From Alphaproteobacteria bacterium (lineage in GTDB: Bacteria; Pseudomonadota; Alphaproteobacteria; Rs-D84): 53,473 bases of DNA. Positions 28,605 to 37,632 of this stretch are shown here, piece after piece. The stretch spans positions 1-53,473 of the forward strand of contig JAFZHX010000038.1 in the NCBI GenBank assembly GCA_017554665.1. The letters run 5' to 3'. How positions within the stretch are numbered: position 1 is the stretch's first letter; each line of letters starts with the position of its first letter. The position numbers and the translations under genes are program-made. The notes below the pieces were generated by a model. It saw nothing but the letters and a program-made list of their open reading frames with translations. It made no database searches and was not told the DNA's origin.

Positions 28605-29702
28605 TTATTCCTCACACAATTCTACTGCATAGAATTCATCGGAAGACATAAGGTTAGCAGAACCACAATAAACACGATAATTACATGTGCGTTCTGGTTT
28701 TCCTAATAATTTCCATGACGCCAGTGGCACAACATTTATCAAGCAATAACCATCCTGAACATATTGTTGCGCTTCATTCACAGACAAAAACTTTGCATTT
28801 GCGGGTTTATTTGTAATCTTATACAAATCTTCAGTTGCAGGCACACGTATCAAAAAGTCTTTTCTTTTACCTTCTGCCAAAACAGCAGCACATTCATCTC
28901 CACAATCTTTTATAGCCTGACGCACAGTTTGAACTGCTTTCGAGTCAGAATAGATAAACTGATTTATTTTATACAAAACTTCGCAAGCATCTTTTTCATG
29001 ATCTTCTATTACTCCATCGTTTTGATATAGCTTCATATTGGAATAATCCCAATTTTGTGAAAGCAACAAAGCATCTTTCTGGGTCAGCACAATATGTTCA
29101 ACACCAATCTGCAATGCTAACTGATTACATTGAGTATTCATACAATATATTTTTTTAGTAATATCATTTATGCATCTTTCTATTTTATTTGGCATTTTAT
29201 AATTATGATTAAAAGGTACTTTAGCACTCCAATTTCTACCTATATATTCTTCTTTCACAGGCTGACAAAAATGCCCTATGCTATATTCTCTACCTTCTGC
29301 ATTAGTTGTTTTTTCTCCTATAAAATTAAGGTCATACTGCAAAATTTGCTTATCAGCGATATCGGCATAAATACTCAACAACGCAGTTCTTTCAGAACCA
29401 GGGAAATTACCTTTATAAGATAGACGAACATATCCAAATTCACCGTGATCTTTAGCTTCTATAACTTTTTCAAATACGGTTGTTATATTATCTACTGTAA
29501 CTTTCGCATAATCTTCATAAGTAGTAACTTTCACATTTATTTTTGTATCATTTGTATCAAAATCTCCATAAGCATTTTTTAAATACAAAGCATTTACATT
29601 CGACCAATATTTATCCACTTCACAAGACAACTCCACATCAGAAGTCGCACTGTCGCATCCAGCAAGTGCAATAACAGGCAATAAAAACAACATTTTTTTC
29701 AT
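28605..29702 (-). CDS. Hypothetical Cys-containing lipoprotein (about 365 aa)
   Basis: Lipobox LAGC in MKKMLFLLPVIALAGCDS. The start at 29702 follows GGGAGAG. There are about a dozen Cys. I recognise no family. Confidence 0.7.
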   Translation of the reverse strand: MKKMLFLLPVIALAGCDSATSDVELSCEVDKYWSNVNALYLKNAYGDFDTNDTKINVKVTTYEDYAKVTVDNITTVFEKVIEAKDHGEFGYVRLSYKGNFPGSERTALLSIYADIADKQILQYDLNFIGEKTTNAEGREYSIGHFCQPVKEEYIGRNWSAKVPFNHNYKMPNKIERCINDITKKIYCMNTQCNQLALQIGVEHIVLTQKDALLLSQNWDYSNMKLYQNDGVIEDHEKDACEVLYKINQFIYSDSKAVQTVRQAIKDCGDECAAVLAEGKRKDFLIRVPATEDLYKITNKPANAKFLSVNEAQQYVQDGYCLINVVPLASWKLLGKPERTCNYRVYCGSANLMSSDEFYAVELCEE

Positions 29703-29806
29703 AGACTCTCTCCCTTTTATTCCAGACAAAGACATTATACCATAAAAAATAACACTTGTACAAACAATCCTATTTTTATAAAATTCTAATAACCAAGGAG
29801 ACAACA

Positions 29807-30184
29807 ATGAAAAAATTATTTATTTTATCTGCCCTATTATGCTTATGCGCATGCGATAACAACACCGAAGCTACCGCAGCTTCTGGTTTGTGTCTCAGAA
29901 ATGCAAAAACAATTACTACAACAGAACAAAATGGCGAAGTTGTCAAAACAACAACCACAGAATTATTCTTATGCAAATGTTTTACAAACAAAGATTCTTT
30001 TATGATGCCACAAGATGAATTTGCATTTGAAGTCAGTACCACAGATACAGCCAACGGAATCGAACCATCTGTTGAATATACAGAACACACCAAAACAGAA
30101 ACTTTTGCAGAATCAACCACAAAACAAAGCGTTCACAGCGACTGCGATAAAAGTTGTACAAAAGCATGTCAAAAAAAGCTGTAA
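29807..30184 (+). CDS. Small hypothetical lipoprotein (125 aa) with a Cys-rich tail
   Basis: AAGGAG SD and lipobox LCACD. It is Thr-rich and its C-terminus reads CDKSCTKACQKKL. Confidence 0.65.
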   Translation: MKKLFILSALLCLCACDNNTEATAASGLCLRNAKTITTTEQNGEVVKTTTTELFLCKCFTNKDSFMMPQDEFAFEVSTTDTANGIEPSVEYTEHTKTETFAESTTKQSVHSDCDKSCTKACQKKL

Positions 30185-30247: not shown

Positions 30248-30991
30248 CTATTTAATATTGGACTTGTTCCAGCTTAGTGCATTTCGCAAATAGTTACGAG
30301 CCAGCTCTATATCAAATGCCCCTGCGCGTCGCAATTGACCTTCAGCATCAATCCAAGTCTTATATTCTTTTTGCAAGTTTCCAGATATTTTATCCAAGTT
30401 ACATTTTACATTATCAGGCGACAGGCCACCAGCATAACCAAATTCAATATCGTCATACACAGGCATATCCCAACGCTCTGGCAATTTACCAACACCATAA
30501 GAGCCATCAAACAACAATTTAAAATTCTTGTTATATTTTCTTAACAAATCAATTTGAGGCTTTACTTTTTGATTAAACGGAAATATAAATTCACGATCAG
30601 GAAAACACCTAAGCAGCCCGACAATCTTATACATCTCAAAAGTTGTCGTTTCATCACCAATATTTAATTGAATACGTTGTATCAAAGGCTTATTTGTTTT
30701 TGTGTTTTTACGTGCCAACCAGCCAGCTATTTCACTTGGGACCAACCCCTCAGCCATATAATCACACCATTCATAATTTACATGCAGTGCAATATTAGGC
30801 TGATTTTTTAACCCTTCAACAGCATCCAGCAAACGATTCATCCAACCATTACGAGGCAACCCAAGCGACATCGCACTTGGGTGTGCTTGAACGCCCAATT
30901 CCGCCAACGGCGACATATGCAATAAATCTATTGTTTTTTCTATAGATAAATTTTCACGTGGATCCGACATAGTTATATAACGCAACTGCAT
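30248..30991 (-). CDS. Hypothetical protein with weak resemblance to a phosphoribosylanthranilate-isomerase (TrpF)-like TIM barrel
   Basis: AAGGAT SD. LLFDGSYGVGK ... FGYAGGLSPDNV ... IDAEGQLR is reminiscent of the C-terminal half of TrpF (LDS..GGTG / AGGLNPENV / VDVSSGVE). There are no neighbouring trp genes. Confidence 0.35.
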   Translation of the reverse strand: MQLRYITMSDPRENLSIEKTIDLLHMSPLAELGVQAHPSAMSLGLPRNGWMNRLLDAVEGLKNQPNIALHVNYEWCDYMAEGLVPSEIAGWLARKNTKTNKPLIQRIQLNIGDETTTFEMYKIVGLLRCFPDREFIFPFNQKVKPQIDLLRKYNKNFKLLFDGSYGVGKLPERWDMPVYDDIEFGYAGGLSPDNVKCNLDKISGNLQKEYKTWIDAEGQLRRAGAFDIELARNYLRNALSWNKSNIK

Positions 30992-31049
30992 ACAAACATC
31001 CTTTTACTTTTATGATAAATTACTGTAACACAAATAATTAAAAAAACAA

Positions 31050-31080
31050 AAAAAATGTCCCATCGGGACATTTTTATTTT
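31050..31080 (-). terminator. Rho-independent terminator downstream of tRNA-Gln
   Basis: aaaaaaatgtccc-atc-gggacatttttatttt. The stem is the same type as the terminator at 18853. Confidence 0.7.
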
Positions 31081-31084
31081 ATCT

Positions 31085-31158
31085 TGGTTGGGGCAGCTGG
31101 ATTCGAACCAACACTGACGGAGTCAGAGTCCGGAGTTCTACCATTAAACTATGCCCCA
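31085..31158 (-). tRNA. tRNA-Gln (anticodon CUG), CCA encoded
   Basis: My manual fold of the minus strand is UGGGGCA-UA-GUUU-AAUGGUA-GAAC-U-CCGGA-CUCUGAC-UCCGU-CAGU-GUUGG-UUCGAAU-CCAGC-UGCCCCA-A-CCA. The 7-bp acceptor stem is perfect, the T-loop is UUCGAAU, and U33 precedes CUG. There is one C-U mismatch at 27:43. Confidence 0.85.
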
Positions 31159-31168
31159 AGCACCGCGG

Positions 31169-31197
31169 ATTATAAGGCTTTTTTATTTTCAATGCAA
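31169..31197 (-). promoter_or_regulatory. Near-consensus sigma70 promoter for tRNA-Gln
   Basis: The minus strand reads TTGCAT, a 17-nt spacer, then TATAAT. The -10 ends about 10 nt upstream of the mature tRNA 5' end. Confidence 0.7.
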
Positions 31198-31213
31198 GCG
31201 GAAAGTTTTTTCT

Positions 31214-31289
31214 ATGTAAAAAATATGTAAAATTTTTTGCAAAACGAAAGCACTTTTACACATGTAAAATATGTATTTAATATGTACAA
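31214..31289. repeat. Array of (A)TGTAAAA-like motifs upstream of the tRNA-Gln promoter
   Basis: ATGTAAAA occurs at 31214, 31225 and 31262. An inverted TTTTACA lies at 31254, forming ttttaca-ca-tgtaaaa. Variants are ATGTATTT at 31271 and ATGTACAA at 31282. The spacing is 9-11 nt. Confidence 0.6.
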
Positions 31290-31415
31290 AAACAACTGCC
31301 ATCGCCTTGATTTTACATTAAAACCGCCACTTTTCCAACACTTTTAATTTTTCCAGACCATTGTTCCGCTAGTCCGCCGGTCTGGAAAATACTCAAAAGA
31401 ACACTACTTTTTAAT

Positions 31416-31439
31416 AAAAAAGACGACCAAAAGGTCGCC
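31416..31439 (-). terminator. valS terminator
   Basis: The minus strand reads ggcgacc-tttt-ggtcgtc followed by tttttt, about 20 nt after the valS stop. Confidence 0.7.
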
Positions 31440-31457
31440 TTTCATATTGTTTTCTTA

Positions 31458-34064
31458 TTATTTTTTTATCTGAACAAAATCCATATCAAGTACAATATCA
31501 GATGTCGCAAATTCAGGCGCATCTACATATTTTATACCCGATGGGACAACACTACCCACATTTATCAAATCTGTTTCGCCTGTACGTAAGATATCACAGA
31601 TTTGTGCTGGTGCAGATATTGTTATGGATAATACAGGTGTTTTCTGAGATTTGCCATTTTCAGATTTTGCACCACGAATATCTGAAACAACTTTTACTGT
31701 TGAATCATATAAAACACTATCATCTGCGGTTATGCCAACAAAGTCTTCTTCCATAATCCACGACTGGTTGTGTAAAGATTTTTCACTTGTTCCCCATGGT
31801 CTAGATTGAAAGATTTCTTCGGTAATAAACGGACAGAATGGTGCAAAATGCTTTACAAATACATCAATCGTGAACATCAGTGTCGCAATTGCAGAAGAAC
31901 TATCATCTGAATACGCACGGGTCTTTACTATTTCTAAATAGTTATCACAAAAATTCCAAAAACGTGATTCCATTACATCCAACGCGGTTGCATAATCATA
32001 ATCATTGAATGCACGTGTTGCCGTTGCAGACGCATCCGCCACAGTATGCAACCAAGACTTATCCATTGGGTTTGTGATATATTTCTTATAGTCAGATTCT
32101 GCAACAACAGAACTATTGCCGACTATACCGAACACAAATCTACTGGCATTAAACAATTTGACGATAAACTTATGCCCCTGTGACATCATTTTTTCATCAA
32201 ATGCAGTATCCATACCCAAACGCGCCTTGGCCGCCCAATACCGAACCGCATCTGCAGAATATTGGTCTATCAAGTGTGCAGGTGTCACCACATTGCCTTT
32301 GGACTTACTCATTTTCTTTCTATCTGGGTCCAAGATAAAGCCACTTATCAAAGCATTGTACCATGGCAATTTATTTTCATGTAATAGTGCTTTGGCTACG
32401 GTATAAAATGCCCACGTCCGGATAATTTCGTGCGCCTGTGGTCTGATATCCATTGGCAAAGACAAATCCGACCCCTTTGGCGCAATAGACATTGCCAACT
32501 GTGGTGTCAATGAACTGGTTGCCCAAGTATCCATAACATCTGGGTCACCGATAAACCCACCATTTTTTCCGCGCATATCTTCTGTATAACCACGTGGTGC
32601 CATACTCATTGGGTCAACAGGCAACTGGTCTAAATCTGCAATAATTGGATTATCAAAATCTGGGTTGCCAGCATTATCTAACTTATACCAAACAGGGAAC
32701 GGCACACCAAAAAATCTTTGACGACTGATACACCAATCTTGATTCAAATTCTTTGCCCAATCAACAAAACGCGCCTGCATAAAAGATGGTTTCCAGTTGA
32801 TTTTCATACCTGCATCAACTAATTCATCTTTATGTTCCAACAGTTTTATAAACCATTGGCGCGAAGATACAAATTCTAATGGAAAATTGCCTTTTTCATA
32901 AAACTTTACAAAATGCTTGATTGGTCGTGGTTCGCCTAACAAAGCACCATCAGCACGTAATAACTCAACGATTTTACGTTTTGCATCTGCGGCAGACAAT
33001 CCCGTCAACTGAGAATAATTTTTATTGGCTTTATCTTCGTTTAATGTTTCAAATGCATCTTCGCCAAATTTAACATCCATCAAATGACCATCTAGTCCAA
33101 TAATTTGTTTAATTGGCAAGCCAGATTGTTTCCACCACGCAACGTCTGCGGCATCACCAAATGTGCAGACCATCATAATACCTGTACCTTTATCTTTTTC
33201 TGCATGTTCAGATGGTACAATAGGAACAATCACATCAAACAATGGAACTATCGCATTTTTACCAAATAAATCCGCATATCTTTCATCATCTGGATGTGCA
33301 ACAATTGCAATACAAGCAGGTAATAATTCTGGTCTTGTTGTTGCAATAACAAATGTTTTATCTGATCCTTGAACTTTGAATTCCAAGTCATGAAAAAAAC
33401 CATCAACTTCGCGGTCTTCAACCTCTGCCTGTGCAATCGCAGACCTAAAAGTCACATCCCACATTGTTGGCGCATAAACAGAACGTGTATGTCCTTTATT
33501 AAACAAATCAATAAACGATGCCTGTGATAATTTAATTGCCTCGTCACTAATTGTTGAATATTTCAAGTTCCAATCATAAGAATGCCCAATTCTACGGAAT
33601 AAATCTTCAAAAACCTTTTCATCTTGTTCGGTCAATATTTTACAAGCCTCTATAAAATTGCGGCGTGAAACCTCGCGACGTGGCGATTTATCATCTGGAT
33701 TATGCGCTGGGGTAAAATCCGGATCATAAGGCAGTTTTGGATTACATGCGATATTATAGTAATTTTGAACGCGTCTTTCTGTTGGCAAACCATTATCATC
33801 CCAACCGATTGGATAAAATACGGATTTGCCACACATGCGCTGAAAGCGCGTAATTAAATCTGTTTGTGTATAACTAAAAATATGCCCGACATGTAAAGAA
33901 CCAGATACGGTTGGTGGTGGAGTATCGACGACAAAAGAATTGACGCGAGAAGCAGTTGCATCGTATGCATACGTGTTCGTATTCTCCCAGAAATTTGCGC
34001 ATCTATTTTCAATTGCGCAAATATCTAGGCGGCTGTCTAATTCTTTTTGTGTTTTGTATTTCAT
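31458..34064 (-). CDS. valS: Valine--tRNA ligase (868 aa)
   Basis: The HIGH region is DTPPPTVSGSLHVGH, the KMSKS region is KKMSKSKGN, and an editing-domain-sized insertion is present. AGGTGG SD. There is no long C-terminal coiled coil. Confidence 0.93.
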   Translation of the reverse strand: MKYKTQKELDSRLDICAIENRCANFWENTNTYAYDATASRVNSFVVDTPPPTVSGSLHVGHIFSYTQTDLITRFQRMCGKSVFYPIGWDDNGLPTERRVQNYYNIACNPKLPYDPDFTPAHNPDDKSPRREVSRRNFIEACKILTEQDEKVFEDLFRRIGHSYDWNLKYSTISDEAIKLSQASFIDLFNKGHTRSVYAPTMWDVTFRSAIAQAEVEDREVDGFFHDLEFKVQGSDKTFVIATTRPELLPACIAIVAHPDDERYADLFGKNAIVPLFDVIVPIVPSEHAEKDKGTGIMMVCTFGDAADVAWWKQSGLPIKQIIGLDGHLMDVKFGEDAFETLNEDKANKNYSQLTGLSAADAKRKIVELLRADGALLGEPRPIKHFVKFYEKGNFPLEFVSSRQWFIKLLEHKDELVDAGMKINWKPSFMQARFVDWAKNLNQDWCISRQRFFGVPFPVWYKLDNAGNPDFDNPIIADLDQLPVDPMSMAPRGYTEDMRGKNGGFIGDPDVMDTWATSSLTPQLAMSIAPKGSDLSLPMDIRPQAHEIIRTWAFYTVAKALLHENKLPWYNALISGFILDPDRKKMSKSKGNVVTPAHLIDQYSADAVRYWAAKARLGMDTAFDEKMMSQGHKFIVKLFNASRFVFGIVGNSSVVAESDYKKYITNPMDKSWLHTVADASATATRAFNDYDYATALDVMESRFWNFCDNYLEIVKTRAYSDDSSSAIATLMFTIDVFVKHFAPFCPFITEEIFQSRPWGTSEKSLHNQSWIMEEDFVGITADDSVLYDSTVKVVSDIRGAKSENGKSQKTPVLSITISAPAQICDILRTGETDLINVGSVVPSGIKYVDAPEFATSDIVLDMDFVQIKK

Positions 34065-34104
34065 TTTTTTCCACCTAGTTTTTTAATTGTTAAACTGCTT
34101 GTCT

Positions 34105-34132
34105 TTTATACCATATTTTTATCAAAGGTCAA
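34105..34132 (-). promoter_or_regulatory. Candidate valS promoter
   Basis: The minus strand reads TTGACC, a 16-nt spacer, then TATAAA, about 40 nt upstream of the ATG. Confidence 0.45.
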
Positions 34133-34168
34133 TTGTTTGTTGATATAAAATAAAGCCCAAAATTTGTG

Positions 34169-34185
34169 TGTAAAAATATGTAAAA
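34169..34185. repeat. Two more TGTAAAA motifs upstream of the valS promoter
   Basis: tgtaaaa-at-atgtaaaa, the same word as the 31214-31289 array. Confidence 0.5.
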
Positions 34186-34320
34186 CTGAAACCATATACA
34201 AACCAACTTAAACCAACCTAGATGCAGTGACATGCACAAATGTTAAACGGCCATTTTTGCCCGTAATTCAGACTGTATTATGCGGAAATCTGGGATTTTT
34301 TGTTGTGTAGCATATGGGCT

Positions 34321-34356
34321 GTCAGAGTCCGGAGTTCTACCGTTAAACTATGCCCC
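34321..34356 (-). pseudogene. Fragment of tRNA-Gln (5' half, tRNA positions 2-37), direct repeat of 31122-31157
   Basis: The 36-nt segment gtcagagtccggagttctaccGttaaactatgcccc is 35/36 identical to 31122-31157 in the same orientation. It stops exactly at the 3' side of the anticodon loop. There is no T-arm or acceptor 3' strand, so it is not functional. Confidence 0.8.
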
Positions 34357-34417
34357 TATACGGGGCGCGCTATACGCATCTTATTTTTATTTTGAAATTA
34401 ATTTTTTAAAAAATTTG

Positions 34418-34426
34418 TGATATAAT
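34418..34426 (+). promoter_or_regulatory. Extended -10 element (TGaTATAAT) placed for a leaderless transcript
   Basis: The TATAAT at 34421-34426 ends 7 nt before the ATG at 34434. There is no SD in between. Confidence 0.5.
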
Positions 34427-34433
34427 TCCTGTT

Positions 34434-34970
34434 ATGTCAATACCCATCGAAACTATTAACGAATTTCATCTTAAGCGCACACAAGCGCATATAGATTGCT
34501 TGAACTATCATGCTGCCTTATTGGGCTATCATTTTCCAGAGCATGATAATGATAAAAATTCCGGTCCAATGATGATTGCTTATTCATACACGAACTATGC
34601 AAGATATCATCCAGAATATAATATTCCAGAAACATATATCGAGTTTTGCCGAACAATGCGTGCAGAACATCACGCAACCCAAGCCCATCATCTTGAGCAT
34701 TATGCCGATGTTTCAGAAATAAGTAATCTCACATTAATAGAAATGGTCTGCGACTGGTTCAGCGCCAGTTTTGAACAAAGATACATTACACACGAAGATC
34801 CAAACGATTATACAGTACAAGAATTTTTTGATACTTTATTGCGTAACAACCCTGAATACAAGTGGTCAAATGAACAAATAGAGCTTATTTGTTCTACAAT
34901 AGATTTTCTTGAAATGTATGCAAACCACGATGAAATTATGAAAATTTATACCCCTTTGCTTTCTATGTAG
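34434..34970 (+). CDS. His-rich hypothetical protein, possibly metal-binding (178 aa)
   Basis: His clusters include HFPEHDNDK and AEHHATQAHHLEH, followed by EMVCDW. It loosely recalls phage-associated HD-like DUF proteins, but this is unverified. Confidence 0.55.
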   Translation: MSIPIETINEFHLKRTQAHIDCLNYHAALLGYHFPEHDNDKNSGPMMIAYSYTNYARYHPEYNIPETYIEFCRTMRAEHHATQAHHLEHYADVSEISNLTLIEMVCDWFSASFEQRYITHEDPNDYTVQEFFDTLLRNNPEYKWSNEQIELICSTIDFLEMYANHDEIMKIYTPLLSM

Positions 34971-35038
34971 TTAGCAAAACGTACCTAGTGCAAAATCCCC
35001 TGAAAGTATAAATAATTTCTATCAAAGGGGGAAGCACT

Positions 35039-36118
35039 ATGAAAAAAGCATTATTTTTCACAACATTATCTCTTTGTGTTGCATTGGCACAAAATGCCAG
35101 CGCATGCACAGGGATAACACTAAAATCCAAAGACAACTCTACTGTTGTTGCGCGCACAATGGATTGGTCTGGCGCAGAAATGAACAATCTGTACACAATC
35201 GTACCACGCGGTTACACTCAGCAGTCTTTATTGCCAGACGGCACAATGGACGGTCTGACTTTTATATCACTGTATGGTTACGCAGGTATATCTGTTGACC
35301 AACCCGAATTTGTAGTCGATGGCACAAACGAAGCAGGACTATCTGCTGCCCTATTCTACTTTCCAAACTATGGCAAATACCAACAATATAACGAAAAAAG
35401 CAAAGATATATCACTGGCGGACTTTCAAGTCGTATCATGGATATTATCTCGTTTTTCAAGCATCGACCAAGTCAAAGCAGCTATCAACGATGTACGCATA
35501 ATAAATATAGATCCAACAGCTTCGACTGTTCATTGGAGAATTACAGAACCATCAGGTCGCCAAGTAGTCCTAGAAATTGTTGACGGCAAACCAAACTTTT
35601 ACGAAAACGAAATCGGAGTTCTAACAAACTCTCCTGGTTTTCCATGGCACATGACCAACCTTAACAACTATGTCAATCTACATCCAGGCACTGCAGGACC
35701 AACTCCTTTTGGTCCAATAACACTGCGAGCATTTGGTTCAGGTTCTGGCCTGCGCGGATTGCCTGGCGACTTTACACCACCATCTCGTTTTGTTCGTGCA
35801 GCGTTTTTGAAAACATTTGCGCTAGAACAGCCAACCGGAGAAAAATCAGTTGAACAGGCATTTCACATTTTAAACAATGTAGATGTTCCATCAGGTGTTC
35901 AATTTGCAGTTGGCAAATCTCCAACAGACATGCCTGCTGCGACTCAATGGACTGTCGCAACAAACTTAAAGAACAAAATTATTTATTATCATACGATGTA
36001 CAACAGAACGATTCGCAGTATCGACATGAGTAAAATCGATTTTGCAAAAATAAACTTCCAATATCACCCTCTGGATTCTATAAAACAGCAAACGATATTT
36101 TCTGTAAGAATAGACTAA
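35039..36118 (+). CDS. Secreted Ntn hydrolase of the choloylglycine hydrolase / penicillin V acylase family
   Basis: AGGGGGAA SD. The signal peptide ends NASA|CTGITLKS, which exposes the nucleophile Cys. The family core is conserved (RTMDW, NEAGL, LTNSP). Confidence 0.85.
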   Translation: MKKALFFTTLSLCVALAQNASACTGITLKSKDNSTVVARTMDWSGAEMNNLYTIVPRGYTQQSLLPDGTMDGLTFISLYGYAGISVDQPEFVVDGTNEAGLSAALFYFPNYGKYQQYNEKSKDISLADFQVVSWILSRFSSIDQVKAAINDVRIINIDPTASTVHWRITEPSGRQVVLEIVDGKPNFYENEIGVLTNSPGFPWHMTNLNNYVNLHPGTAGPTPFGPITLRAFGSGSGLRGLPGDFTPPSRFVRAAFLKTFALEQPTGEKSVEQAFHILNNVDVPSGVQFAVGKSPTDMPAATQWTVATNLKNKIIYYHTMYNRTIRSIDMSKIDFAKINFQYHPLDSIKQQTIFSVRID

Positions 36119-36126
36119 ACAAAAAA

Positions 36127-36158
36127 CAACCCCATAAATAAAATTATGGGGTTTCTTT
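36127..36158 (+). terminator. Rho-independent terminator
   Basis: ccccataa-ataaaa-ttatgggg followed by tttcttt. Confidence 0.65.
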
Positions 36159-36185
36159 GACAAATTATGCTTTATGTCTTATAAT
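36157..36185 (+). promoter_or_regulatory. Consensus sigma70 promoter placed for a leaderless transcript
   Basis: TTGACA (36157-36162), a 17-nt spacer, TATAAT (36180-36185), then 7 nt to the ATG at 36193. There is no SD. Confidence 0.6.
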
Positions 36186-36192
36186 ATATCTT

Positions 36193-37632
36193 ATGAAACT
36201 AAGAAAATTGTTATTACCGCTAACTTTTTTAGGCTTATCCCCTACTGCACACGCTGCGGGTCAGCATTCAGGCGATACAATTCCACAGACAAAAAAGACC
36301 ACGACATATTCGCCTAATAAAAAAACACCAGCGAAAACGATTCAGTATAACGACACAGACAAAGACATATACAACAAGCTTATAAAAAGTTACAACAAAA
36401 ACCCATCCAAGCATAATATCCAAAATGTTGTACAGTTAATGACAATAATGGAAAACCCTTTATATATGTATGAAAGTTTATGCTTATCCATTTCAGATGC
36501 CCAATACTTGGCAAAACATATATCTCCTACACTGCAAAAAAAGCTAAACATAGCAGACAAAGAAGATATTATATTTACTGCCATTAACAAACGCACCAAT
36601 GAAATATCTGACACAGTTGCATTTAACTTTGTAGCGACACACAGCAATCTGACAAAATTAAAATATCCTGTTGAAATACTAACCAAAGCTTTACGCGTTG
36701 CGCTATCTGACACGGCCAAAATTGGCAAATCGCAAACACATATCAATTGTATTTCTAATTTTATGAACTTTGCGCAGCAATATCAAAACAATCACGAGAT
36801 AACAAAATTATACTCTTCTATATTTGTAGCAACCGCTAATATGATTCGTGATTACAACAATCAAAAGACTCACTTTCAGTCTATCAACATACTAACCACA
36901 TTGATTAACAACTTTAACAATCACATTATATCTGGTTCCGTAATTGATAAAGAGATTCAAATTAAGCAACCACAAGATTATGTTATTCAAGAATACAAAA
37001 ACATTTCTGCGCGCGTAAATTTAGCAATGGTATATAATCGTGCATATTTATGTTTTGTATCCCGCACACATAAATCACATCCTAAACAATACAATCATAA
37101 ATACACACAACAGCTGTTTCAAAACTATGTAGAAGCAATCGAAATACAGTACCTGCATCGCAAACAAGAAGCAACCAAAGAACAACTACAAAGACTAGAA
37201 ACACTAATAAAAAAACATCCAGAAATATATTTATTCGAGCCTTACTTTTGCAACATATATTTGAGCACAGCAGAATACAACAAAATTCTACTTTTTATGA
37301 CAAATGTAAAAATTGCAAACGACAACAAGGCACACAATGTACCAAAAAACATTTTAAACATAGTGAACAAGTGCAATAAAAACGCAGACAAGCAACAAGA
37401 ATACATATCGAAACACATGATTAATGTGCCACAAATATCAATGGCATTACCAAGCAAAATGTCATTACAACAGATAAGGAAATCTGTTTTAATACCATTA
37501 AACATCAGCAATATCGTTACAGCAGAGTTAGAAAAACAACTAGACAACCTAGAAATAAAAATAGACGCGATGGAAAAAATTATAAAAAACAACCCTATAC
37601 ACAGCATGCAAATGCAACAAAATTCCAAATAA
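36193..37632 (+). CDS. Hypothetical secreted N/K/I/Q-rich protein (479 aa)
   Basis: Signal peptide MKLRKLLLPLTFLGLSPTAHA. The composition is very AT-rich and I recognise no family. The ORF track starts at the TTG at 36157, which is actually the -35 box. Confidence 0.65.
   Translation: MKLRKLLLPLTFLGLSPTAHAAGQHSGDTIPQTKKTTTYSPNKKTPAKTIQYNDTDKDIYNKLIKSYNKNPSKHNIQNVVQLMTIMENPLYMYESLCLSISDAQYLAKHISPTLQKKLNIADKEDIIFTAINKRTNEISDTVAFNFVATHSNLTKLKYPVEILTKALRVALSDTAKIGKSQTHINCISNFMNFAQQYQNNHEITKLYSSIFVATANMIRDYNNQKTHFQSINILTTLINNFNNHIISGSVIDKEIQIKQPQDYVIQEYKNISARVNLAMVYNRAYLCFVSRTHKSHPKQYNHKYTQQLFQNYVEAIEIQYLHRKQEATKEQLQRLETLIKKHPEIYLFEPYFCNIYLSTAEYNKILLFMTNVKIANDNKAHNVPKNILNIVNKCNKNADKQQEYISKHMINVPQISMALPSKMSLQQIRKSVLIPLNISNIVTAELEKQLDNLEIKIDAMEKIIKNNPIHSMQMQQNSK

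Follow-up and report, generated by a model that had tools for sequence, protein, structure and literature searches.

A probable integrase-less cassette with an accessory valyl-tRNA synthetase gene in tRNA-Gln of a gut alphaproteobacterium

Introduction

Why does a valyl-tRNA synthetase gene (valS) stand between a complete tRNA-Gln gene and a nearly perfect copy of the 5' half of the same tRNA? The question is raised by contig JAFZHX010000038.1 of an alphaproteobacterium of the lineage Rs-D84 (assembly GCA_017554665.1), of which 53,473 nucleotides of the forward strand were analysed; this whole stretch is called the window below. An earlier note, made from the sequence alone, had offered two readings. 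The repeats could be att-like scars of a recombination event that delivered or relocated valS, or the tRNA fragment could mark the edge of an accessory islet on its other side (34434-37632). The locus has the architecture of an insertion. Empty sites exist in relatives, the same cassette was recently exchanged between species, the cargo varies from genome to genome and the valS gene is accessory. Probably, a cassette of about 3.2 kb without an integrase gene entered tRNA-Gln(CUG) at the 3' edge of its anticodon loop and displaced the 5' piece of the original gene, which survives as the 36-nt copy.

The assembly to which the window belongs (G000) comprises 784,785 bases in 41 contigs and is 78% complete; the window's contig is C24 of this assembly. 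Other genomes and their contigs are denoted in the same way.

The tRNA-Gln gene and the displaced copy of its 5' part

The only tRNA gene in the window is a tRNA-Gln(CTG) on the minus strand, which was called by ARAGORN and is also matched by the Rfam tRNA model (Table 1). The two 36-nt copies (34321-34356 and 31122-31157) are direct repeats and identical at 35 positions. Their single mismatch sits in the D-loop (ccAttaaa versus ccGttaaa). Read in tRNA orientation, the copy begins at position 2 of the tRNA and takes in the anticodon loop up to and including its last base (..CTCTGAC). When the whole assembly was searched for the 36-mer with up to three mismatches, exactly two copies were found, while the reversed control pattern gave no match. 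Since ARAGORN calls no tRNA at 34321-34356, the second copy is regarded as a fragment and is termed the stub. The intact tRNA-Gln is preceded by a promoter that can be read from the sequence as TTGCAT (31192-31197), a spacer of 17 nt and TATAAT (31169-31174). The copy of this promoter upstream of the stub is degenerate in G000.

According to Pfam, the gene order is S8 peptidase, ssb, two unknown open reading frames (ORFs), tRNA-Gln, valS, the fragment, DUF5662, a gene of the choloylglycine-hydrolase family (CBAH), an unknown ORF, pgk and rnhB. Between the repeats, valS is the only ORF of at least 100 amino acids that is not nested in the valS span. The description given in the earlier note was thus accurate in several respects. 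The repeat with one mismatch that ends at the 3' edge of the anticodon loop is borne out by the sequence and by the assembly-wide search, which it had proposed and which returned only the two known copies. valS is indeed the lone gene between the repeats, and integrases are absent from the window (no PF00589 match on its contig). The weaker likeness noticed between 31180 and 34384 is real and corresponds to the spacer between the -35 and -10 elements of the two tRNA-Gln promoter copies.

Empty sites in related genomes

For the analysis of synteny, up to about 20 kb around the 36-mer was inspected at 26 loci of 24 related genomes by tblastn with the window's proteins. valS was not found within 10 kb of tRNA-Gln at any of the 26 loci. 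At least seven genomes of the genus (G024, G014, G005, G020, G018, G017 and contig C4 of G006) contain an empty site, where an intact tRNA-Gln lies approximately 120 to 600 nt from the DUF5662 and CBAH genes, on their 5' side and divergent from them, with neither stub nor valS. The fragment of the window occupies the place that the intact tRNA-Gln holds in these relatives. The 3' side of tRNA-Gln in relatives leads to the genes for orf247, ssb and the S8 peptidase, as it does in the window. Since relatives show this order, S8 peptidase-ssb-...-tRNA-Gln followed by DUF5662-CBAH is taken as ancestral, and positions 31159-34320 together with one copy of the 36-mer therefore represent an insertion into the tRNA gene.

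Both readings of the earlier note can be judged from this comparison, which had been suggested there. The reading of the repeats as att-like scars stands as far as delivery of valS is concerned, in view of the empty sites and of the much higher similarity of the cassette than of its flanks in a second species (see below); relocation of valS does not stand, as the gene is a second, accessory one. The reading of the fragment as the edge of an islet at 34434-37632 has to be given up, as DUF5662 and CBAH are conserved native neighbours of tRNA-Gln.

Two related genomes deserve mention in their own right. In G006, the empty-site contig C4, with the intact tRNA-Gln beside CBAH, occurs in the same metagenome-assembled genome (MAG) as contig C5, which ends with cargo, R arm and stub. 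The pair may reflect a presence/absence polymorphism of a cassette in the population or an assembly break. Contig C5 was also considered as a circle, and it is not terminally redundant and its start contains neither L arm nor stub. G015 (79% complete, 3% contamination) has two complete tRNA-Gln(CTG) genes on contigs C37 and C40 (loci L035 and L036) with different flanks on both sides. These could be a true duplicate, a strain mixture or contamination.

Recent exchange of the cassette between species

In G063, the order of CBAH, 36-mer fragment, valS and intact tRNA-Gln is the same as in G000. Positions 31084-34356 of G000 align with G063 at 98.75% identity over 3276 columns (blastn). The flanks are much less similar, with 75.9% identity for CBAH and 76.9% for pgk/rnhB, and no match was obtained downstream of the tRNA. 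The cassettes of G063 and G157 are 98-99% identical to that of G000 over approximately 3160 nt (98% for G157). In the alignment of G000, G063 and G157, about 8 to 10 differences per pair are found in the coding sequence of 2.6 kb, compared to about 10 to 25 in each arm. Because the coding sequence holds fewer differences than the arms, the cargo is considered younger than the arms that surround it.

The cassette is also present in public sequencing data. A k-mer index returned 19 public runs from 11 studies that contain half or more of the sampled cassette words. Contigs from three other studies (X4, X9 and X16) cover approximately positions 31169-34347 at about 99% identity (12 to 38 differences), whereas the flanks of G000 are not covered. 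These data are assembled contigs, which cannot show excision or rare forms. A single joint in X16 that skips 3346 nt (depth 4.8, side 45, 90% likeness) was not used as evidence.

The GC content of the cassette (37.6%) is close to that of the genome (38.3%) and lies at the 35th percentile of 682 windows. By the yardstick of the earlier note, this unremarkable composition would count against transfer. It is not an argument against transfer here, because such a value is expected if the donors are close relatives. Taken at the level of sequence, the comparison indicates that the cassette passed recently between species.

The valS cargo and the resident valyl-tRNA synthetase

The valS gene of the cassette encodes a protein of 868 amino acids, which is assigned to the alt_ValS type by NCBIfam (NF000540, 1096.4 bits at a cut-off of 900) as well as by PRK13208, and which scores below the cut-off of the models for ordinary bacterial valyl-tRNA synthetases (ValRS). 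The two signature motifs of class I synthetases, HIGH (as SLHVGH) and KMSKS, are intact in the translation. A native ValRS of the bacterial type is encoded in G000 by an open frame of 802 amino acids on contig C36 (PRK05729, 1001 bits). This native type (matched at 28-30% identity, about 800 amino acids) is present in all 61 genus genomes compared at the protein level, while the alt type at 59% identity or more was found in five of them (G000, G063, G044, G047 and G008). Judged by DNA, approximately 22 of 251 genus genomes contain a gene of the alt type. In a quality-filtered sample of the order, it occurs in 6 of 115 genus genomes and in eight further genomes from six other genera of the family. 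The frequency of alt_ValS in the sampled genus genomes is therewith about 5-9%. In G157, the cassette valS is interrupted by a nonsense codon (CAA to TAA at codon 320).

The phylogeny called for in the earlier note was calculated with FastTree from 31 sequences, which were picked by hand from the match listings. It places the cassette enzyme within a clade of alt_ValS proteins of gut Alphaproteobacteria, far from the native enzyme of contig C36. The outward neighbours are enzymes from MAGs of Rickettsiales and Holosporaceae, followed by Actinomycetota, Acidobacteriota and others. The closest genomes are those of uncultured Alphaproteobacteria of goat colon, rumen and similar sources. From the sequence, the valS gene is a second, accessory and dispensable ValRS gene of the alt_ValS type in a cell that keeps its bacterial-type ValRS, and its product is predicted to charge tRNA-Val.

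The alt_ValS loci of G044, G047 and G008 are not flanked by tRNA-Gln arms. A different tRNA is found next to the diverged alt_ValS gene of G047, which begins 60 nt after an intact tRNA-Ser(TGA). Approximately 117 nt 5' of this tRNA-Ser lies a 5' part of the same tRNA that ends in the anticodon loop (contig C2, locus L087, 8686-8943), and 8 nt of its upstream sequence are duplicated as well.

A family of cassettes with changeable cargo

Positions 31159-34320 were compared by blastn with 251 genomes of the genus, with only two candidates scored per genome. Matches were obtained in 71 genomes and fall into four classes, namely three full cassettes, about 19 diverged alt-valS genes located elsewhere, and matches to the R arm (about 170 nt beside the fragment) or to the L arm (77-251 nt beside the intact tRNA). 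The R arm was found at 88-94% identity in at least 35 of the 251 genomes (tally of the listed rows), and the L arm was matched in many.

Of 20 loci that were fetched, 17 carry at least one stub together with an R arm. A complete unit of stub, R arm, cargo, L arm and intact tRNA-Gln on a single contig was present at 11 loci, with a span of 0.96 to 4.9 kb. In G097, stub and tRNA are separated by about 18 kb. G074 and G170 contain two units in tandem, which are joined by L arm, stub and R arm, while G185 and G146 retain decayed R remnants. The cargo occurs in both orientations. Its Pfam families were determined for 49 ORFs in or beside cassettes and for 17 ORFs in or beside the 18-kb island. A restriction-modification set of two DNA methyltransferases and a PD-(D/E)XK protein is found in four genomes. 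Other ORFs of this set encode histidine phosphatases, S8 and S41 peptidases, glycosyltransferases, GNAT and NUDIX proteins, an ABC transporter and a helicase, and many belong to no Pfam family. The sequence just past the R arm sorts by cargo type.

Among ten genomes, the R arm is on average 88% identical, compared to 73.5% for the adjacent CBAH gene, and its identity is the higher one in all 45 pairs. In JGI metagenome contigs the R-arm block gave three matches, one of which is the contig of G063, while the two others show the same architecture; no match was found in viral contigs. As judged from these comparisons, many species of the genus have, at this one site, a member of a cassette family with conserved arms and apparently interchangeable cargo. 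No description of such a family was found in the literature, although few searches were made and this is no proof that it is unpublished.

The junction and the shared motif

In the scanned loci, 24 stub matches were found, of which 22 are full-length and were aligned. The other two matches were cut by contig ends, and one of these (in G008) may be an intact tRNA. All 22 junctions read ..CTCTGAC, followed by four variable nucleotides and then by CATATGCTACACAAC..., which belongs to the R arm. The four nucleotides, the first of the R arm (34317-34320 in the window), are TCCA in most copies and AGCC in G000 and three others; AACC and ACCC also occur. G063 and G157 have TCCA, unlike G000. A full second tRNA-Gln at 34321 in relatives, which the earlier note had named as the sign of simple decay of a duplicate, was not seen at this junction, where the loop position of the break is the same in all 22 full-length copies. 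A canonical promoter is retained 5' of most stubs. Several promoter types precede the stubs, and these match the promoters of intact tRNAs at empty sites. The occurrence of stubs behind different native promoter types argues for repeated entry at exactly one position.

Complementary fragments exist in G016, G202, G074 and G233, where the intact tRNA is followed by a tail of 143 nt and by a 3' fragment that starts in the same loop (..GTC / CTCTGACTCCGTCAG...CCA). In G000, no such 3' fragment was found. Since the 5' fragments end and the 3' fragments start in this loop, its seven bases are exactly what the two kinds of fragment share, which resembles an att core. The tandem motif TTTTACATATTTTTTACA (18 nt) is found at three places, namely at the far end of the R arm, in the L arm about 60-75 nt upstream of the tRNA, and in the tail. 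With up to two mismatches, it has two matches in the 785 kb of G000, one of which is the L-arm copy. The distal end of the R arm carries a second copy of the TTTTACA tandem motif. The motif lies about 110-150 nt on either side of the core, which resembles the placement of arm-type sites. The nucleotide that differs in the D-loop is swapped between stub and intact tRNA when G000 is compared with G063.

A motif of the same design, with two 7-mers 11 nt apart (TGTTACATATTTGTTACA), was noticed in G074 (contig C3, locus L196, 10745-10896), 58 nt from a tRNA-Arg(TCT) that abuts the gene of a 418-amino-acid integrase. Possibly a related integrase uses it as an arm-type site, but it is regarded as a lead only.

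Layout of the cassette and its neighbours

The features of the locus are compiled in Table 1. The configuration of the fragments, with an end piece in direct orientation and the 5' fragment upstream of the restored gene, is that of islands in tRNA genes (tDNA islands). A promoter scan returned nine promoter-like sites versus 13.4 expected and is uninformative; the sequence TTTACA-16-TATTTT at the end of the R arm is a lead only.

Table 1. Features of the tRNA-Gln locus in the window.
Feature	Positions	Strand	Evidence
Terminator-like hairpin and T-run, native downstream flank of tRNA-Gln	31051-31075	-	Terminator scan; same downstream sequence after tRNA-Gln in G023, G015 and G005
Intact tRNA-Gln(CUG)	31085-31158	-	ARAGORN; Rfam RF00005, 64.5 bits
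Repeat copy 1, 5' part of the intact tRNA	31122-31157	-	Sequence reading; assembly-wide pattern search
L arm, conserved, non-coding, with the promoter of the intact tRNA and the tandem motif TTTTACATATTTTTTACA at 31215-31232	31159-31409	-	85-92% identity over 251 nt beside other cargo in other species
Cargo valS, 868 amino acids, alt_ValS type, SLHVGH and KMSKS	31458-34064	-	NF000540, 1096 bits (cut-off 900); Pfam tRNA-synt_1 and Anticodon_1
R arm, conserved, non-coding, about 170 nt, directly after the stub	34147-34320	-	88-94% identity in at least 35 of 251 genus genomes; alignment of 22 copies
Stub, probable displaced 5' part of the original tRNA-Gln (repeat copy 2)	34321-34356	-	35/36 identity; ends at the last base of the anticodon loop
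Remnant of the native tRNA-Gln promoter region 5' of the stub, degenerate in G000	34357-34433	-	Alignment with promoter regions of relatives
DUF5662 gene, native neighbour outside the cassette	34434-34970	+	Pfam; adjoins tRNA-Gln in relatives with and without cassettes
Choloylglycine-hydrolase-family gene (CBAH), native neighbour outside the cassette	35039-36118	+	Pfam; near tRNA-Gln in relatives with and without cassettes

Two further ORFs of the window, at 36157-37632 (491 amino acids) and 28605-29807 (400 amino acids), belong to no Pfam family and show the lowest local GC content (32.3% and 32.7%), below the first percentile of genome windows. The 491-amino-acid ORF shares just 35% identity with the corresponding ORF of G063.

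Short inserts were also found behind three other tRNA genes of G000, namely tRNA-Arg(TCT) (C14, 8876-9110), tRNA-Ser(TGA) (C32, 4502-4775) and tRNA-His(GTG) (C33, 8734-9010). Each is followed by a mini-insert of about 100-160 nt and then by a repeat of the last 19 nt or so of the tRNA plus part of the terminator. The three mini-inserts have a common right end (..GGTTCGAGCCGAAGGCGAA..GGGAATTACA) that abuts the T-loop. Their sequence suggests a second family of mini-elements or scars without an integrase, with a site of the T-loop class.

Insertion, spread and alternative explanations

For an insertion at the anticodon loop, the order in tRNA orientation would be the old promoter, the stub, the R arm, valS, the L arm with a replacement promoter, and a replacement 5' half joined to the old 3' half, the latter two forming a working tRNA-Gln. 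A tyrosine recombinase of the anticodon-loop class, provided in trans, would be responsible for the founding insertions, with the 5' fragment displaced, which is the rare orientation. We give such a loop-specific recombinase acting in trans an even chance; it is favoured because of the loop core shared by 5' and 3' fragments, the tandem arrays, the motif on both sides of the core and the entry behind different promoters. At present, the cassettes would spread and swap cargo for the most part by homologous recombination, which would take place in the arms and tRNA sequences once DNA has been taken up. That cargo and arms are now shuffled in this way is suggested by the mosaic pattern of the arms; the same valS cargo is combined with different R-arm variants, which shows recombination inside the arms.

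Several results weigh against an insertion by a recombinase. No recombinase family of Pfam was found in the 49 ORFs in or beside cassettes or in the 17 ORFs in or beside the 18-kb island. In G000, only two matches to PF00589 exist, on contigs C22 and C35, and with 317 and 306 amino acids both are of the size of Xer proteins. Additional integrases of the phage type (337-579 amino acids) were present in all five relatives checked, where they adjoin tRNA-Arg(TCT), tRNA-Ser or tRNA-Asn or lie elsewhere, and none is located at tRNA-Gln. The hypothetical junction of tail, core and R arm expected of a circular form was found in none of 257 genus genomes, nor was any excised or circular form seen (contig C5 of G006 included). 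Identical valS cargo occurs with differing R-arm variants and tetranucleotides (AGCC versus TCCA), which fits homologous recombination alone, and ComEC, DprA and RecA are kept in G000. The swap of the D-loop nucleotide between G000 and G063 would not be predicted from strict crossover in the loop if the cassettes were of one lineage.

Alternatively, the site could be a hot spot of homologous recombination only. A single ancient accident would then have made the junction between stub and R arm, and spread and cargo exchange would be due to natural transformation and RecA, anchored by the invariant tRNA sequence, the 36-nt stub and the conserved arms, with no site-specific recombinase active today. 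The lack of an integrase in any cassette examined, the restriction of G000 to Xer-like recombinases, the uptake and recombination proteins just named and the arms that are mosaic around identical cargo all agree with this, as does the divergence of the species, since genes are about 74-76% identical between them and only the tRNA and the arms are alike enough for RecA. It does not account for 5' and 3' fragments that both break in the same 7-nt anticodon loop. The tandem arrays of G074 and G170 would require crossovers within 36-74 nt of homology instead of in the longer arms, the stubs behind several native promoter types imply repeated entry at one position, and the tandem motif flanks the core like arm-type sites. 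Homologous recombination alone is an explanation that we consider rather unlikely. Spread by homing, in which a nuclease acting in trans would cut the anticodon region of tRNA-Gln and repair would copy the cassette with a replacement tRNA part from an occupied allele, would yield the same architecture. The arms contain no ORF of more than 48 amino acids (the longest have 37-48 amino acids and no support), the lone nuclease domain in the cargo is the PD-(D/E)XK domain inside the restriction-modification cassette, and the restored tRNA would stay a target, so that homing is very improbable.

Two further explanations were considered. The first is simple decay of a tandemly duplicated tRNA-Gln, with valS merely lying between the copies. 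In its favour, tRNA-Gln(CTG) is present twice in complete form in G015, in a different sequence context on each of two contigs, and G202 has an intact tRNA followed by a partial copy. Yet the end point and the conserved R arm that follows it are common to all 22 full-length junctions aligned, a full tRNA at this place is present in no relative, relatives with empty sites exist, and cassettes of about 99% identity occur in species whose flanks share about 76%. Because of the fixed junction, the empty sites and this contrast in identity, decay of a duplicate is rejected as largely refuted and extremely improbable. Stub and R arm (together about 200 nt) might instead be a selected functional RNA gene or leader that starts like tRNA-Gln and beside which variable genes gather. 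In its favour are the stronger conservation of the R arm relative to the adjacent protein gene and the canonical promoter retained upstream of most stubs. It is quite improbable, however, considering that RNAalifold on 22 copies of stub plus R arm found compensatory changes in none of 39 predicted pairs, that an Rfam scan of 30500-35000 gave nothing above threshold except the tRNA, and that the stub promoter is degenerate in G000. Moreover, 216 of the 251 genus genomes have no R-arm match, the R remnants of G185 and G146 are decayed, and the cargo occurs in both orientations. In view of the lack of compensatory pairs, no claim of an RNA structure is made for the arms. Insertion of a cassette into tRNA-Gln therefore remains the reading that we prefer.

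Comparison with known mobile elements

The cassette has most in common with tDNA islands. Of the 3919 islands in the Islander database, 159 have a displaced 5' tDNA fragment, and 2083 belong to the anticodon-centred class (PMC4383910). As in such islands, an intact tDNA is accompanied by a displaced end fragment in direct orientation with the 5' piece upstream, the break lies at the anticodon loop, which like the T-loop/acceptor junction is a recognised crossover sublocation, the gene is restored by the element, presence varies among relatives and tandem arrays occur (PMC4383910). A replacement of the 5' part must bring a promoter with it, and here the L arm supplies TTGCAT-17-TATAAT. The cassettes examined differ from such islands in that they contain no integrase gene, so that Islander would reject them, and in their very small size of 1-5 kb. 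Also unlike tDNA islands, the arms are conserved across unrelated cargo and are mosaic, which points to homologous exchange.

The cis-mobilizable elements (CIMEs) of streptococci are flanked by att sites of integrative and conjugative elements, contain no recombination or transfer genes, are thought to use the integrase of a related element and can form tandem arrays by accretion. The cassette resembles them in having repeats of the attL/attR type on either side and in that no integration or transfer genes were found. It differs in that no partner element with an integrase was found at tRNA-Gln in the genus, in its host, a gut alphaproteobacterium with a genome below 1 Mb, and in the orientation in which the 5' fragment is displaced. 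The cassette functions in the manner of a tDNA island or a cis-mobilizable element, although it lacks the integrase that the former demands and no parent element was found for the latter. A single fixed site, many interchangeable cargo units that depend on a promoter, and arrays are also features of integron cassettes. Unlike in integrons, there is no IntI, attC hairpins and covarying pairs in the arm are absent, the boundaries consist of pieces of a tRNA gene and long arms, and cargo units can hold several genes.

With respect to the cargo, the isoleucyl-tRNA synthetases (IleRS) of the ileS2/mupA type are accessory second synthetases (PMC4861432). The cassette ValRS is comparable as a divergent second synthetase of another phylogenetic type that is carried on mobile DNA and coexists with the housekeeping enzyme. 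It is different in that no inhibitor or resistance phenotype is known for it and that one copy is already a pseudogene. To the archaeal/actinobacterial-like ValRS of Rickettsiales (NF000540, PRK13208) it is similar in scoring above the cut-off and in its neighbours in the tree, which are enzymes from Rickettsiales and Holosporaceae MAGs; unlike these, it is an extra copy on a cassette and not the sole ValRS.

Significance

If one tRNA site serves these gut bacteria for the exchange of accessory and defence genes with no resident integrase, as the cassette family suggests, this bears on the plasticity of reduced genomes of less than 1 Mb. Island finders that require an integrase will miss such cassettes, and tRNA fragments of the kind described here can be mis-annotated.

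Tentatively, and with less confidence than in the insertion itself, the site may be viewed as an integron-like but integrase-less site of gene exchange in the genus, in which the tRNA-Gln half and the two conserved arms form a portable docking module. In that case, any cargo between the arms could pass between species and enter the anticodon loop of tRNA-Gln, with the promoter of the module restoring the tRNA.

From gene trees it is known that aminoacyl-tRNA synthetases can be replaced by horizontal transfer. To our knowledge, the vehicle of such a replacement and the intermediate with two enzymes have seldom been seen. In the present case, a cell with an intact native ValRS also carries a ValRS gene of foreign type on a 3-kb cassette; three species share this gene at about 99% identity, and the copy of one of them already shows decay. 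Should the view of a docking module be correct, a vehicle would have been caught delivering a foreign-type synthetase beside the resident one, which is the intermediate implied by phylogenies of synthetase replacement.

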